Assembly: GCA_036338595.1 (NCBI GenBank)
Contig: JAYZBV010000113.1
Location: 1 to 64,000, forward strand
DNA from: Planctomycetota bacterium
GTDB lineage: Bacteria; Planctomycetota; UBA8108; UBA1146
Direction of reading: 5' to 3'
DNA: 64,000 nucleotides
This document shows positions 27,001-33,000 of the stretch, piece by piece. The position numbers are program-made. The first letter of the stretch is position 1. Each line of letters begins with the position of its first letter.

Positions 27001-30000
27001 TATGCGAGGTGTCCTACTCGATGGGGCCAGAGGCGTCTTCGGAGGTGCTCTGGAGGGGCTTCAAGAGTCCCATCGGCGGTGAGGGAACTCTCTTCGAGGA
27101 TGCCAACCTCGCTCCAGATGTAGACGGGACACCGATGCGAAGCCGTCCTGTAGCGGACGGGGTGCTTTACCTCGAGTGGTCCTTCTGGGGTGGAGATCGA
27201 CGCCACTGGGAGGATGGAAAGCCGCAGGCACCGATCAAATTCTGGGATTCTACCCGGGGGATCGTGAAGCCCGAGCGAGATTCGGGAATCAGCTGGGATG
27301 CCGGTAGCCGAGACGATCCTGCAGATGATGTGTTTCCCGATACAGTCGAGGTACTGCTGGTGTTGAAGCCGGCCCGATCGTTGGCGCTGGGTCGACTGAC
27401 GATGGATCTCGACGATTCGAGTCAGACCATTCCGGTCGATTCCACGGCACAGTATCCGATCGGAGCCGACAATTTCATCCGTATCGATTCGGAGTGGATC
27501 CGGGTCGGAAGGATCGAATCCGCAGCATTTCTGGATTGCGATCGCGGCATGAGAGGATCCATTGCGACCACGCATCCGAGACTTCGCCAGGTGGTGCACG
27601 GTTCTTCATTTCGTAAGACGGTTCGCATTCCGGGTGCACGCGATCCTGGAGGTGCACGATGACTGCCAGCAGAAGGCAAGCAGGTTTCACCCTGCTCGAG
27701 GTTGTCGTGGCGCTGGGGATCCTGACAGTGGGTGTCAGTGCTGCGATCTCACTCTTTGCCGCGGGGACCGCTTCTCATCGCCGGGCTGTCGATCGAATCC
27801 GCGCCATCGAGGTCTCCGAGATGGTGCTGGCTTCACTGGAAGGGGCGATTCGGGATGGGGCGACCGTCACCGATCTGGTCAACAATCCGCCCTGGGATCT
27901 ACTGGTTGACCGATGGCCAGGGATTTTCGTCGAGGTCCGCTACGGCACCATCTCCAAGCAGCAAGGACGAGACAAGTTGCTCGTGAATGTCAGGCAAGAT
28001 GGTGATGGTGAAAGAGAAGTCAATTATCGCTCCATCCCCAGCGAAGATTATATCGATGAGTTGCTGGTCGAGATCCATGTGACGTGGATTTCCAGAGGTC
28101 AGGGGAGCGAGGAAATTTTTCGTCAGATCGTGCCTCGGATGAGAAGTATCAGACTTCCGATACCCTGATTACCGATCATTCACACGCTGACGACCGCGCG
28201 CTCGATCAGTTCCACCGGAGAGGCCCCGGCTCCACTCTTCAGTTGCCAATCCATCTCGATGAGGGTTTCGATGATCTTGTTGGTGCGAGGAGCATCGCAC
28301 CTCTGGTACTGTTTGCGAATTCTCGGCAGGAATGGGCGAGCGATCCCTGCCTCCTCGAGGATCTCCTTCTGACCACCTCCCCTGGCGATGATTTCATGGA
28401 CGGCTCGTAGTTCCCTGGCTCGTTTGAGTGACAGCGCAAGAAACTGAAGAAGCAATCGTTGTGGGTCCCTGACGCGCTGGTTCTTCTCATCGAGTGCACC
28501 ACTGGTGACGATATCCGCCAGCACCTTGAGAGATCGGGCCCGGTCCTGTTCAAACCAGGAATCGACCAGATCAAAGGCGGATCCGTCACCGCCAGAAGGG
28601 GAGTTGTCGACGATGATCTTCTCGTCAATGTCCTGAATATGGTTCGCATCGCAGACCGTCGAGATCCTCTCGATGGCGCCTGCAAGTTGATCCATCAAGG
28701 GGCCGATCCGATCGATGAGGATCTGCGCAATGGGGGGCTTCACCGTGAGTGATAGCTTCTTGAAACGATGGACCACCCATGAGTTCATCTCATGATCCCA
28801 GGGTCTTGCATCCGGTTGCCACGGTGGAGGGCGGTGATAGGGCCGATCTGCAGAGATCCACAGACCGTGTTTCAACAGCGCCTTCGCCACCTTAGAACGC
28901 CCATCCATCGAATCCGTGGTGAGAATCAGGCAGGAACCCTGTGGAGCCGTTTTCATGAATTGCACCCAGGAATCTGGATCGGACTTTAGCCAACCCTGTG
29001 CGTCCTGGATGATGACCACGGGACCGCTGCCGAAGAGGCCCGGCGTTCTCAGGTCATCAAAGATCTCACGGATCTGATTCTCATCTGCCGCCCGGTTGCC
29101 CTGGTAACGGATCACCGAATCTGCATCGGGAGTGCCTCCCGGAATCGATTCGAGGAGCAGGTCGATCGCCTCACGGCGCAGCAGATCTTCCTTGCCCACC
29201 ACGATGCTGACAGGGGGCGATCCCTTCGCCAGCCGTGCTGCCAGAGCGGCTACGGTGACCTTCTGATCGGACGCTCGATTTCTGGATGAAGTGGCCATAC
29301 CCCAGTCTCCGTGGACGCAGCCAGGAATTCAACTGATGCCTCTTGAACAACCAGTATAGGTACGGTATTCAGAGCAGCGACAGGATTGATCCGGACTGGT
29401 TCTGGATCGGAAGTGTGGTGAGATTCCACCGCGGTGCCGCCGCTGTAACCGGGGACAACCCCTGCAATTCCAGGTATTGCCTGGAACGCCACTACGGAGT
29501 GCCGTGGGAAGGCGCAGGGAGAGGACGATCCGGAAGTCAGAAGACCTCCTGTCCCTGATTCTCGCTTGAGGTCAGGTCTCCGAGCAGAGAGGTTGACCCG
29601 TGCGACTGAATGACATCTCCATCACCATGCCGTATCGACGCACCCTCGCCGGCATCGGTTCAGCGCTCATCTTGTTCATCGGCCTTCCGCTGCTTTCACC
29701 CTCTTCGGCACAGGCTGCAGATCCTGTCGCAGAGGTGACCACGGTGATCCCAGGGGCTGTTGTCGATTCGCATCCGTATTCCGTGATCATCGACGATGAA
29801 CATCAGTTTGGATATGTTTCCGTCAGCGGAGATGTCGCCCCGTTTGGTGAGCCAGTCGATGCATTCAGTGCCCGACAGGTGGTCGAGTTTGACGCCAGAA
29901 CGCTCGAGGTCTCTCGGATCTTCGAGGTCGGGTATTTCCCTACCGAGTTGTTGTTGCACGATGGGGATCTCTGGGTGAGTTGCTCGACCGTGAGTACCCT

Positions 30001-33000
30001 GTTCCGGATCGACCTGGCCACTGGTTTTGTTCATTCAATTCCGATCACGGACAGCAGTGGATCCGATATTGGATACCCCTCGGGCCTGGCGCACGGTTTC
30101 AATGGTGAGATCCTGGTCGCGTCGAATGGTGGCAGTTTCGACGGTTCCGATGAGAATGTGCTGGTCATCGATCCTGTTACGGAACAGGTGCTGCAGAGAT
30201 ATCAGATCGCTGGAGGTATTTCAGTACTGGCTGCCCTCGATGATGGAAGTTTGCTGGTTCCGATAGGCTTCCCTGACGACGACTTCACTGCCGCACCGCT
30301 GCTCAGATGGATTGACCCGATCGATGGAGAAACGATTTCGGAACTCGAAATCGATGTCGATACATCGGATTTTCCTGCACCCAGCGATCTGGAGATTCTC
30401 GACGATGGAACTGCACTGTTGACGATCTTTGGAGGAAGTTCCGTTGTCTACAGGATCGACCTGGCGACCAGAAGTCTGTACGAGACTTACCCTCTCGAAT
30501 CTGGCGAAGTGGTGCAAACTTCGGTATGCCAGGGCGCTGGGGGCACATTTCTGGTCGCTGAATACTTCGCGAACACCGTATCCAGATACGACCTAGGTAG
30601 TGGAGCCTGGATCGAATCCCTGGCTGGTAATTTCCTTCCAAACCGGATCGCCAGTTCCGGTGGGAGAATATTCACCACTCAGCAGGGGTTGGAAATTGTC
30701 ACGGTTCACGCGGACTTCGATTCCTTCATTCGCTGTGATATCAACAGGGATCAGCAAGTCGATGTGGCAGACCCCATCTTGTTGCTGGGCTATCTGTTTC
30801 TGGGTGTGGCCATCCCCTGTCTCGATGCTGCTGATTTCAGTGACGATGGAGAACTCGATCTCTCGGATGCCATCGGATTGCTCTCTTTCCTCTTTTCACA
30901 GGGTAGCCCTCCAGCATACCCTTACCCCGTTGCCGGAGACGACCTGCACGAGGACAGCCTGGATTGTGACGACTAGCCCAGTTCGAACTGATCTCGGATC
31001 CAGAAAGGATCATGTATGAGCGACAGAAATCTGCACCTCCTCAGCCTTTGTATCGCAGTGCTTCTCATCCCCACTCCGATGCTGGCTCAGGGAACCTGGT
31101 ACGGGGATCAAGATGCACTCTGGAGGCAGCAAGATGGCGTGTCACAGCCGTTGGCTGACCTGGGAAACGATCTTCGTTCCATCGCTCGAACGGCAGCGGG
31201 AGGCGGCTGGATTGCCATCGATGGCCAGAGTGAGGTGGTCCATGTTGATCCCGCTGGAGTGGTCCTGGAAGTGGTGGATACCGACGTCGGGGTCCAATCC
31301 CTGGCGATAGATTCGACGGGTAGGGTGTGGGGGACGCGACCCGCACTCGATGATGTCATCGTCATCATGGCGGGTGAGGGAATCGTGGCTTCTCATGGCG
31401 TGGGGTCGGTGCCATACGGAATCACGGTGGATACCCTGGATCGAATCTGGATCAGTTGCTCCTACGGGAATGTGGTTCAAATTCTCACCTCCGATGGCGA
31501 CCTGGAGCAGGAGCATGCCGTCGGATTCTTCCCGACGGGGATCACGGCGTCTCGTGACGGCGGAGTATGGCTCGCCGAGAAGGAAGGTTTACGAAGGATC
31601 TCTTCCGGTGGAGTGACGATATGGAGCGGAGTAGCGGGAGTCTTTCCCATCGGAGTCACGACAGATCTCCTCGGGCGAGCATGGTTTTCTTGCCAGTCCA
31701 GTCACCAGGTGGTCGTGGTCGGGGATGAGGGAGTGGAGAACATCATCGATGTACCCCTTCGTCCCCTCGGGATCAGTGGAAATGGCGACGGAACCGTCGC
31801 TGTTCTGTGTCGAGACGGCTCCGTCGTTGTCCAGCTGGATCCGACGGGCCAGATCATCGAACAGGAGCTGGTAGAGACGCCGATTGGCAGTGGCGACCTT
31901 TCGGGGTTGAGCCGGGCTCTGGTGGTGGATCCGTCGGGAGATGTGGATAGCGACGGGGTCTCCAATCATGCGGAGGCTCAACTCGGATTCAATCCTCTCG
32001 ATGCGGCTTCGACTCCGGCAGTGTTCATTCGAGGAGATGCGAATCACGATGGAGTTGTCGATCTCTCGGATGGGATCGAATCTTTACTGGTGATCTTTGG
32101 GATCACGAGCAGTTCCTGCCTGGAAGCTCTCGATGTCGATGACGATGGTCGACTGACTCTGTCGGATCCGATCAGGATCTTTGACCATGTGTTCGGGGAG
32201 GGGCCTGCTCCCGGGACGCCGTATCCCGAATACGGTCCAGATCCGACTCCGGCGGATGGCTTTCCCTGTACTCCCTGAGGGGTTCTGGCACCATGTTGGC
32301 GAGCGGGGTTGCATTCGGATGGCCGTCCATGTCATGATGGGTGGGTCCTGTTCCTCTCCGGGGGAACTTCACGACGATCCTCAATCGGGGATCGTAATGG
32401 CGCCCTGTAATCCATCTCCTGAGAGGGATGAATAGTAGGACGCATTTCTACAGATGAACTGACCTCTCGCTCCTCATGTCAGGAACAGTGGAGAGTCGGT
32501 ACCCCGAATCGAAGGGGGATATGAATGGATAGCAAGGTCGATCCGGAGCACCAGATCGCCGTTTTCGTGGACCTTGACAACATCGCTATTGGAGTCAAGG
32601 AAGCCAAACTCACCAGCCTGGACATCAAGAGAGTGCTCGACCGACTGGTCGAGAAGGGGAAGATCACGGTCAAGAAGGCCTATGCAGACTGGTCCAACTG
32701 GACCCAGTACAAGCGTCCTTTTCACGAGTGTGCCATCGAAATGATCGACATTCCTCAAAGAAAGATGTCCGGAAAGAACAGTGCAGATATCAAGATGGTT
32801 GTCGATGCACTGGAGCTTTCTTACTCGAAGCCCCATGTCGACACCTTTGCTCTGATATCCGGAGACAGCGACTTTTCGCCACTGGTATCCCAACTGCGCG
32901 AGAATAACAAGAAGATCATCGGGTTGGGAGTGAAGCACTCCTCGAGCAATTTGCTCATCGACAATTGCGATGAGTTCATCTTCTATGAGGATCTGGTCAG

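Follow-up and report, generated by a model that had tools for sequence, protein, structure and literature searches.

The closest described counterpart of the locus reported here is BtuG of Bacteroides, an exported seven-bladed beta-propeller that is produced under cobalamin riboswitch control in a B12-auxotrophic host. One report describes BtuG2 as binding corrinoids, which carry a positive charge, on a negatively charged propeller face above the central cavity (PMC10404256). A second report places the propeller family PF16819 (DUF5074) beside B12-uptake genes (PMC13398666), and an eLife study gives BtuG homologues as exclusive to the Bacteroidetes (PMC6143338). The proteins described below belong to another phylum, the Planctomycetota. 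Two further kinds of propeller enter the comparison: the YVTN/YncE type, represented by an archaeal S-layer protein (PDB 1l0q) and by E. coli YncE, for which we know of no link to B12, and virginiamycin B (streptogramin B) lyase, or Vgb lyase, a cytoplasmic enzyme.

In the sea, B12 is scarce and the majority of microbes rely on others for it, so the way in which auxotrophs capture the vitamin shapes marine communities. To our knowledge, extracellular corrinoid-capture proteins are hardly known outside the Bacteroidota, and outer-membrane nutrient uptake is poorly understood in the Planctomycetota. We consider it reasonably probable that the operon analysed here is repressed by B12 and serves to acquire corrinoids in a marine planctomycete that is auxotrophic for the vitamin, with its first product as a candidate BtuG-like capture protein.

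The riboswitch and the two genes behind it

The window (the whole stretch of DNA that was analysed, 64,000 nucleotides) contains a cobalamin riboswitch followed by two genes, here called A and B, with the following features:

29365-29566, + strand: cobalamin riboswitch aptamer (RF00174), 80.2 bits, E 3.8e-18, model positions 1-189
29567-29599, + strand: leader from aptamer to start codon, presumed expression platform, with the purine run GAGAGG 7 nt upstream of the GTG
29600-30976, + strand: gene A (g02260), 458 aa, GTG start, in-frame ATG at codon 10
Gene A, residues ~1-39, + strand: signal peptide, ending AQA/AD
29717-30715, + strand: gene A, residues 40-372, seven-bladed beta-propeller (predicted fold)
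30731-30976, + strand: gene A, residues 378-458, dockerin-like tail
31016-32278, + strand: gene B (g02261), 420 aa
Gene B, residues ~1-25, + strand: signal peptide
31091-31885, + strand: gene B, residues ~26-290, Vgb-lyase-like/NHL-type propeller
Gene B, residues ~305-330, + strand: Asp-rich linker, DPxGDxDxDGxxN
32024-32278, + strand: gene B, residues 337-420, dockerin-like tail

An earlier survey of this genome had described its sole cobalamin riboswitch as preceding a two-gene operon of exported propellers, and our analysis agrees. The match covers the entire aptamer model at 80.2 bits, against an Rfam gathering score of 31.5 bits for RF00174, is the only one in the genome (88.3% complete), and lies 33 nt before gene A on the same strand. 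No terminator-like site was found between the aptamer and gene A, so control of the two genes is most likely exerted at translation initiation; shuffled sequence folds locally as well as the leader does (z 0.48). Low intracellular cobalamin would permit expression of A and B, and bound cobalamin would shut it off.

The description of both products as beta-propellers that end in a dockerin-like module also held, in that AlphaFold gives a propeller and a helical tail for A (pLDDT 86.8, pTM 0.84) as well as for B (pLDDT 88.3, pTM 0.77), and seven-bladed propellers rank high in the structural matches of each. Both proteins would be exported by way of their Sec signal peptides, and among 29 sequences of A and 21 of B no conserved cysteine indicative of a lipobox stands behind the signal peptide. 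The propeller domain of A is strongly acidic, with 50 aspartate and glutamate residues versus 11 lysine and arginine residues and a pI of 4.05, and a pI of about 4.06 recurs in all 21 of the A orthologues compared; acidic proteins are frequent in marine organisms. The 37 invariant residues of the A propeller all fall in loops (D-A and B-C), and by our own reading of the topology of the model these loops would all lie on one face.

Comparison with BtuG and other propellers

A resembles BtuG in its predicted seven-bladed fold, its export, its riboswitch and its auxotrophic host, and an acidic propeller with invariant loops apparently on one face recalls the negative binding face of BtuG2. However, BtuG is a lipoprotein with a Bacteroidetes surface-export signal, whereas A and B have neither lipobox nor lipoprotein signal, and A carries a dockerin-like tail where BtuG has its lipid anchor. 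BtuG is encoded beside the TonB-dependent transporter BtuB; no btuB adjoins A and B, and none was found in this genome. Unlike BtuG, A is co-encoded with a second, different propeller.

The sequence homology of A to BtuG is marginal. A scores 23.5-24.4 bits against PF16819, under the cut-off of 27.2; of all Pfam families it is the one that A orthologues match most often (9 of 21), every match being sub-threshold, and B gave no match to it at E 0.01. A profile of A reaches the BtuG1 chains 8ptf and 8blw at E 5e-4 to 3.6e-3. Searches with the predicted folds are uninformative, because they do not separate BtuG from other propellers: seven-bladed propellers, YncE among them (Z 33), all tie with A at Z ~33, BtuG is absent from the Foldseek top 50 of A, and for B the BtuG2 and BtuG3 structures stand at ranks 14-48, after the S-layer YVTN domain, Vgb lyase and YncE. 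The survey had itself cautioned that the link to BtuG1 was marginal and the fold search non-discriminating, and on both counts it was right. By profile (E 2.1e-13) and by Foldseek (E 1.2e-16) the best match of A is the S-layer YVTN propeller 1l0q, a likeness which, as with YncE, is at fold or clan level only.

B has its closest family in Vgb lyase, in sequence and in structure (PDB 2z2n, E 2.9e-12; Foldseek E 5e-16, TM to target 0.74), but is exported and tailed, unlike that enzyme. Its score against Vgb_lyase (PF24684), 46.1 bits, is under the Pfam cut-off of 50, and it reaches 32.9 and 27.5 bits with NCBIfam NF000022 and NF000096, versus a cut-off of 600. This likeness would suit a reading in which A, B or both are enzymes, either of lyase or lactonase type and releasing or converting extracellular corrinoids or complexes of these, or replacing a B12-dependent reaction under scarcity. 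A homologues from outside the order match Lactonase (PF10282) above its cut-off (42.7-43 versus 21.7 bits), the invariant loops of A, rich in Asp, Glu, Asn and His, may bind metal, and cobalamin riboswitches also govern B12-independent isozymes, such as the class I ribonucleotide reductase that follows one at locus L130. We nevertheless regard enzymatic function as distinctly unlikely. Cytoplasmic B12 enzymes are not replaceable by exported proteins, an order without CobS could not rebuild corrinoids once they had been remodelled, and the Pfam matches are scattered over many unrelated propeller families, which points to resemblance at the level of the fold.

Distribution of the linkage and the B12 economy of its hosts

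The survey had counted A orthologues in 31 of the 34 genomes of the order, a figure that stands for full-length orthologues, and had placed the riboswitch upstream of A and B behind it, for both of which the support has grown. Every A-bearing genome of the order (31 of 31) has exactly one cobalamin riboswitch, directly upstream of A, and the three genomes that gave matches to the tail only (G001, G009 and G022) have none. The riboswitch stands upstream on the coding strand at all 29 fetched loci of the order; for G002 this was deduced from coordinates. B follows A at 28 of 28 uncut loci, two loci (L009 and L031) being cut by a contig end and a 198-aa open frame at the latter being excluded from the count. 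A and B are the sole gene set under the single cobalamin riboswitch across the A-bearing genomes of a whole order.

A profile of the propeller alone, without its tail, found matches in 60 of the 401 Planctomycetota genomes sampled. For the strongest relatives of A outside the order, all 20 of the fetched loci have a cobalamin riboswitch of 36.7-122.9 bits upstream, in the coding orientation; among 17 weaker loci, all but one of which belong to genomes outside the order, 10 have one, and, since the other 7 show none in the fetched stretch, the border of the A family is not sharp. Riboswitch and propeller are linked in at least 10 other families of the sampled phylum, although related genomes are not independent and such phyletic counts therefore overstate support. 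With A tied to the riboswitch in many lineages of the phylum, we suggest that this propeller is probably an undescribed way to catch B12 from seawater. The homologues outside the order have other C-terminal regions instead of the dockerin-like tail, and their partners include FGE-sulfatase-domain proteins at nine loci and HEAT-repeat proteins at two; partner genes vary by lineage, with B in this order, and no single conserved machine is evident.

Among the 30 best-scoring cobalamin riboswitch loci from a sample of 151 genomes, the gene downstream encodes a TonB-dependent receptor at eight, an A-family propeller at five and a BtuF-type binding protein at two. The A-family propeller occupies a regulatory slot that is held elsewhere by TonB-dependent receptors or BtuF, and the eight receptor-type genomes include none of the 60 matched by the propeller profile. 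In one family (f38) the riboswitch is followed by the propeller and then by a Peripla_BP_2/BtuF-like protein at 3 of 3 loci (E 1.4e-23, 2.7e-22 and 2.5e-13).

That the organism depends on B12 without making the corrin ring, as had been claimed, is corroborated by its gene content. It encodes MetH (1207 aa), a class II ribonucleotide reductase, methylmalonyl-CoA mutase, an IcmF-like protein of 1073 aa and a PduO-type adenosyltransferase, MetE was not found in it, and neither CbiC nor CobS was found in any of the 34 genomes of the order. In the wider sample of 401 genomes CbiC, a marker of corrin-ring synthesis, is present in 37, none of them among the 60 that the propeller profile matched; the propeller and corrin-ring synthesis do not co-occur. 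A single Peripla_BP_2/ATPase/BtuC-like operon corresponds to the one BtuCDF-like importer previously noted, and its binding protein is weakly BtuF-like (26.8-34 bits). The reported absence of a TonB-dependent receptor was reproduced for this 88.3%-complete genome, in which the barrel domain (PF00593) gave no match, but it is a weak argument, since 25 of the order's 34 genomes have such a receptor, and within the genus 7 of the 8 others do. The one receptor scanned in a sister genome (G014) is of heme type and adjoins TonB.

Dockerin-like tails and a candidate route of B12 capture

The tail found on A and B recurs in 140 open frames of the genome, counted between stop codons with a minimum length of 100 aa. 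Neither protein matches Pfam Dockerin_1 (PF00404) at E 0.01; in the PDB, dockerins are matched by the A-family profile at E 3.7e-4 and by B (2y3n_B) at E 0.0053, a sibling protein that bears this tail (L159) has a dockerin match of 33.4 bits versus a cut-off of 22.9, and both tails are modelled as paired helices. A cohesin-dockerin 'planctosome' has been proposed for freshwater Planctomycetes, as a hypothetical structure concerning peptidases (PMC6461901). The likeness lies in dockerin-like modules on exported, non-cellulolytic Planctomycetota proteins and in a cohesin-like protein of this genome, and the difference in that no cohesin partner has been identified for A and B.

When 18 tail-bearing proteins were drawn at random from the genome, eight had a Pfam match, and seven of those eight were lectin, PKD, P-domain or adhesin-like, modules typical of the cell surface. 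The genome also encodes a dockerin/cohesin-like/dockerin protein. We propose that A and B may be displayed at the surface through their tails. The same two observations argue against the propeller being a periplasmic trap or chaperone that would bind corrinoids once they are through the outer membrane and hand them over to a BtuF-like protein, with the tail as a general envelope-sorting tag, and such a trap would duplicate BtuF. We think this unlikely, even though the BtuF-like protein in the operon of the f38 propeller has a lipobox (LVGC in L063), homologues outside the order have no dockerin-like tail, neither A nor B has a lipid anchor, and one of the 18 sampled proteins is a di-haem cytochrome c peroxidase, an enzyme that is normally periplasmic.

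A tail held in common with lectin, PKD and adhesin-like proteins could also mean that the propellers are displayed adhesins without B12 binding of their own, which starvation for the vitamin induces and which attach the cell to particles or to partners that make it. Elsewhere in the Planctomycetota, cobalamin riboswitches stand before PKD/TIG-domain proteins (three loci) and pilin-like DUF1559 proteins (two loci). We find this very improbable, given that the operon link with a BtuF-like protein and the regulatory slot of TonB-dependent receptors point to B12 itself as the ligand, and that one invariant face across many lineages suits one small ligand better than the varied surfaces of partners.

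The reading that we prefer remains corrinoid capture by A. As the universal member of the family, A would bind corrinoids on the acidic propeller face that bears the invariant loops and concentrate them outside the cytoplasmic membrane, like BtuG in Bacteroides. B would be an order-specific partner propeller, the dockerin-like tails would keep the two proteins attached to a scaffold in the cell envelope, and captured corrinoid would pass, by a putative outer-membrane route, to the single BtuF/BtuCD-type ABC importer. The survey's reading of the propellers as a B12-capturing counterpart of BtuG gains from the riboswitch linkage, the complementarity with CbiC, the uptake-gene slot and the BtuF-like operon of f38, and loses by the marginal homology to BtuG, the lack of a lipoprotein signal and of btuB, and its argument from a missing receptor. 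A wider proposal concerns those Planctomycetota that have no riboswitch-controlled BtuB: a secreted and highly acidic propeller with seven blades, paired in this order with a second one and held by its tail in a surface scaffold, might form a TonB-independent B12 front end that takes corrinoids out of seawater and feeds BtuF/BtuCD, an independently evolved BtuG analogue and the sole B12-regulated function. We put this forward tentatively, as a possibility.

Our literature search found no paper that joins cobalamin riboswitches, Planctomycetes and a propeller, and the A family is a sharply defined candidate for B12 capture in this phylum. If binding is confirmed, the family would serve as a marker gene for tracing B12 scavenging in marine metagenomes and would add a new scaffold that binds B12 with high affinity, besides offering a handle on the role of the very abundant dockerin-like tails in these bacteria.

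Prediction of an A-B complex gives weak support to physical contact between the modelled proteins, with a score of 0.39 versus 0.07 for the best of three controls, at least 86% of contacts shared between runs and a partner pLDDT of at least 89. Of 157 solved complexes 116 reached the pass mark for such predictions, as did 2 of 215 mismatched pairs, and those passing at a score of 0.60 or less comprised just 18 of the 157 solved complexes and both of the passing mismatched pairs. The neighbours of the A-B operon are holA and a gene for a NYN-domain protein.

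The riboswitch and its operon

A cobalamin riboswitch in the window is followed on the same strand by two genes for exported beta-propeller proteins with a dockerin-like tail, which we call A (g02260) and B (g02261).

29365-29566, plus strand: cobalamin riboswitch; Rfam cobalamin model, 80.2 bits against a gathering threshold of 31.5, whole model covered
29600-30976, plus strand: gene A; 458 codons, GTG start, 33 bases past the aptamer
31016-32278, plus strand: gene B; 420 codons, starting 39 bases past the stop of A

This confirms and extends the survey's finding of a riboswitch before two propeller genes, and the match is the sole one in the source genome (2.9 Mb, 88.3% complete). 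None of the flanking genes is related to A and B: upstream, on the opposite strand, is holA, and the downstream side carries genes with an NYN domain and a metallophosphoesterase domain (PF00149), followed by a tRNA and trkH in this listing. No terminator-like site was found between aptamer and A, and the leader between them folds no better than shuffled sequence, with no convincing sequestering helix found; from this we infer control of the operon at translation initiation. Among sequencing runs containing the locus, the DNA runs are marine or seawater metagenomes from eight studies, and no RNA runs are listed.

The arrangement is conserved throughout the order UBA1146, and here the ortholog count, riboswitch linkage and gene order that the survey had reported were all borne out. 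Of the 34 genomes, 31 carry A at full length, and a riboswitch (46-81 bits) lies upstream of A on the coding strand in all 29 fetched loci of the order; in genome G002 its position before A was established by coordinates. B follows directly after A in 28 loci, the remaining two loci ending at contig ends. Each of the 31 genomes with A has exactly one cobalamin riboswitch, always before A, and the three genomes lacking A have none. The operon is therefore the entire detectable B12-riboswitch regulon of the order.

The propeller proteins and BtuG

Both proteins begin with a Sec-type signal peptide (...LSPSSAQA/ADP in A, ...PMLAQ/GTW in B), and a conserved lipobox cysteine is absent across 29 A and 21 B sequences. 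For A, AlphaFold predicts 27 strands within residues 42-371 and then a helical tail (pLDDT 86.8, pTM 0.84); for B, it predicts a propeller to about residue 285, then an Asp-rich linker and a tail of the A type (pLDDT 88.3, pTM 0.77). The two are distant relatives of one another (hhalign probability 95.8%, E 7e-9). B comes closest to the virginiamycin B lyase family, scoring 46.1 bits under a cut-off of 50.

The survey had noted a marginal sequence link between A and BtuG1, the Bacteroides corrinoid-capture propeller, and this link gained weak profile matches; the corresponding Pfam family stayed below its cut-off. All Pfam matches of A are sub-threshold, the top one being PF16819 (DUF5074) at 23.5 bits against 27.2; this family is matched by 9 of 21 A orthologues, more than any other, always under the cut-off. 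PF16819 is described in PMC13398666 as a beta-propeller family found beside B12-uptake genes. A propeller-only profile of A matches an archaeal S-layer YVTN domain (E 2e-13), designed propellers and YncE (E 1e-4), and also chains 8ptf, 8ptd and 8blw_B (E 5e-4 to 3.6e-3). The first two of these three chains we take to be BtuG1. The third belongs to 8BLW, the BtuG1 structure according to the data-availability statement of PMC10404256. Fold comparison of the predicted models cannot separate BtuG from other propellers: with A, all seven-bladed propellers tie at Z about 33 (Foldseek, VIA-align), and with B, BtuG2 and BtuG3 appear in Foldseek at ranks 14-48. A protein-cluster atlas search returned generic propeller clusters only, all under 0.9. 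Searching protein representatives with full-length A tells little about family range, the 20,047 matches being tail-dominated, with about 12 of the 150 listed representatives matching the propeller part.

The A propeller has 37 invariant residues, all in loops from strand D to strand A of the next blade or from strand B to strand C in the strand order of the model. By our reading of the topology, all 37 would share a single face of the propeller, surrounding its central channel. They fall in the motifs SHPY, GDVAPFGEP, VGYFPT, SNGGSFDGSDEN, PxGFPxDDFTAAP, VDTSDFPAPSD and GGS. The domain is very acidic in 21 of 21 orthologues (mean 44 D+E against 11 K+R; pI 4.05-4.16). In BtuG2, as PMC10404256 describes it, a negatively charged face above the central cavity binds positively charged corrinoids.

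When the propeller domains of A and B were modelled together, the complex scored 0.39 (best of three controls, 0.07), which is weak support. Of 157 solved complexes, 116 reach the benchmark mark, as do 2 of 215 mismatched pairs; the band up to 0.60, in which this score falls, holds only 18 of those solved complexes and both of the mismatched pairs that pass. Contacts agreed to at least 86% between runs, with partner pLDDT of at least 89, a hint that A and B might contact each other.

We suggest, with somewhat more confidence than doubt, that the locus is best explained as a B12-repressed operon whose exported products are putative corrinoid-capture proteins, BtuG-like in their working. The survey's reading of the pair as a counterpart of BtuG is kept as a proposed functional likeness but not as family membership: by the tests run, A and B stand outside the BtuG family, being under the Pfam cut-off and having neither a lipoprotein signal nor a BtuB partner. 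The eLife study (PMC6143338) reports no BtuG homologues detected outside Bacteroidetes. In the literature searched, we found no paper combining a cobalamin riboswitch, Planctomycetes and a propeller.

Relatives of A and the riboswitch across the phylum

Of 401 Planctomycetota genomes sampled, 60 were matched by the propeller-only profile at E <= 1e-5, and 47 of these fall outside the order. By their record titles, the relatives belong to marine Planctomycetota MAGs; near-closed genomes among the matched ones (G065, G129, G204) suggest that isolates exist. Eleven of the 47 genomes were left out of the locus set, having partial matches, nearly all in open reading frames 668-2859 aa long, with one in a 374-aa frame. 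A cobalamin riboswitch lies upstream on the coding strand at all 20 of the strongest propeller loci outside the order; at the weaker loci it is present at 10 of 17 and absent at 7, one of these on a 2.5-kb contig. These homologues have no dockerin-like tail, and their partner genes vary. In one family (f38), a BtuF-like Peripla_BP_2 protein follows the propeller in three of three loci. An FGE-sulfatase-domain (PF03781) protein is a recurrent partner, following the riboswitch-controlled propeller in nine loci (L051, L052, L055-L059, L099 and L101) in frames of about 560-860 aa, six of which run off the locus end. A HEAT-repeat protein stands between riboswitch and propeller in two loci, and ThiC follows the propeller in three.

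Two candidates were discarded. ThiC as a BzaB lower-ligand synthase was rejected on its scores (ThiC model 631.7 bits against a cut-off of 410; BzaB 533.5 against 700). An apparent 810-aa propeller-BtuF fusion in locus L060 was withdrawn, its first 540 or so residues being a wrong-frame, Arg/Pro/Ala-rich read of high-GC sequence; the true layout is a propeller gene and a BtuF-like gene, adjacent to one another. The closest public relative of A (91% identity, locus L064) is in a MAG labelled Bacillota, probably a mislabelled bin; nearly all others are labelled Planctomycetota or Planctomycetia, and a few only 'bacterium'.

Cobalamin riboswitches were found in 130 of 151 sampled genomes, mostly one apiece, and the genes behind the 30 best-scoring loci of this sample were tallied.

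Genes behind the 30 best-scoring cobalamin riboswitch loci of the 151-genome sample
TonB-dependent receptor: 8 of 30
A-family propeller: 5 of 30
PKD/TIG-domain protein: 3 of 30 (L123, L133, L144)
BtuF-type binding protein: 2 of 30
Pilin-like DUF1559/N_methyl protein: 2 of 30 (L136 of G147, L147 of G127)
Class I RNR: 1 of 30
OprB-like porin: 1 of 30 (L140)
No Pfam domain: 8 of 30

The eight receptor-type genomes and the 60 propeller-matched genomes have no member in common. The propeller thus occupies the regulatory place held elsewhere in the phylum by BtuB. Like the other phyletic counts, this one is descriptive only, related genomes being non-independent. The pilin-like, PKD/TIG and OprB-like genes are unexplained members of the phylum's B12 regulon. 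Tandem cobalamin riboswitches, two or more within a few hundred bases, were seen at L047 of genome G124 (4218-4406 and 4616-4777, minus strand) and at G117:C55, G161:C1 and G064:C1.

B12 supply and the dockerin-like tail

The survey's picture of an organism that needs B12 and does not make the corrin ring held up. MetH, class II RNR, methylmalonyl-CoA mutase, an IcmF-like protein and a PduO-type adenosyltransferase are all present in the source genome, and MetE was not found there. CbiC, a marker of corrin-ring synthesis, was found in 37 of the same 401 sampled genomes but in no propeller-matched genome (0 of 60); within the order, none of the 34 genomes has CbiC and none has CobS. The single BtuCDF-like importer reported earlier is indeed the only FecCD/BtuCDF-type ABC importer found, with a permease nearest BtuC and a weakly BtuF-like binding protein. 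At C53:24166-30642 (minus strand), the genes for the adenosyltransferase and the class II (B12-dependent) RNR share a strand and stand some 3.6 kb apart.

The reported lack of a TonB-dependent receptor stands for the source genome, where no such barrel was found, but not for the order, where 25 of 34 genomes have one. A sister genome, G014, has a single receptor, missing from the source genome and its nearest relative, G012:

L115 (G014:C32) 3228-6010, minus strand: TonB-dependent receptor; best score as a heme/hemoglobin receptor, followed by a TonB-family gene

It was rejected as a BtuB, since TonB-hemin is its top-scoring model and nothing beyond its plug region is matched by the B12-receptor model. 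It has no riboswitch, the sole cobalamin riboswitch of G014 being at the propeller, and nothing marks it as BtuB.

An HMM of the last 84 residues of A finds the tail module in 140 open frames of the source genome, roughly one per 21 kb, at the extreme C-terminus in 134. The tail is therefore not specific to the operon; across the lineage it seems to serve as a sorting or anchoring signal. Carriers reach 2843 aa, with examples at C16:14703-23231, C40, C57 and C23. Pfam domains were found in 8 of 18 randomly drawn carriers (lectins, PKD, proprotein-convertase P-domains, beta-helix adhesin-like and galactose-binding-like domains, and one di-haem cytochrome c peroxidase), and one of the 18 exceeded the Pfam Dockerin_1 cut-off. 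One carrier has the module twice:

C40, locus L096:1078-2211, minus strand: 377-aa exported protein; a tail module at each end and a weak cohesin match (PF00963, 27.6 bits) in the stretch that separates the two

It may act as an adaptor in a cohesin-dockerin network and is the leading candidate for a cohesin-like receptor of the tail. A cohesin-dockerin "planctosome" in freshwater Planctomycetes is put forward as a hypothesis in PMC6461901.

Also in the window, at 20848-28168 (plus strand), a 1910-aa open reading frame with no Pfam domain precedes two type IV pilin-like proteins:

26493-27662, plus strand: N-terminal methylation-motif (type IV pilin-like) protein; motif match
27659-28168, plus strand: N-terminal methylation-motif (type IV pilin-like) protein; motif match
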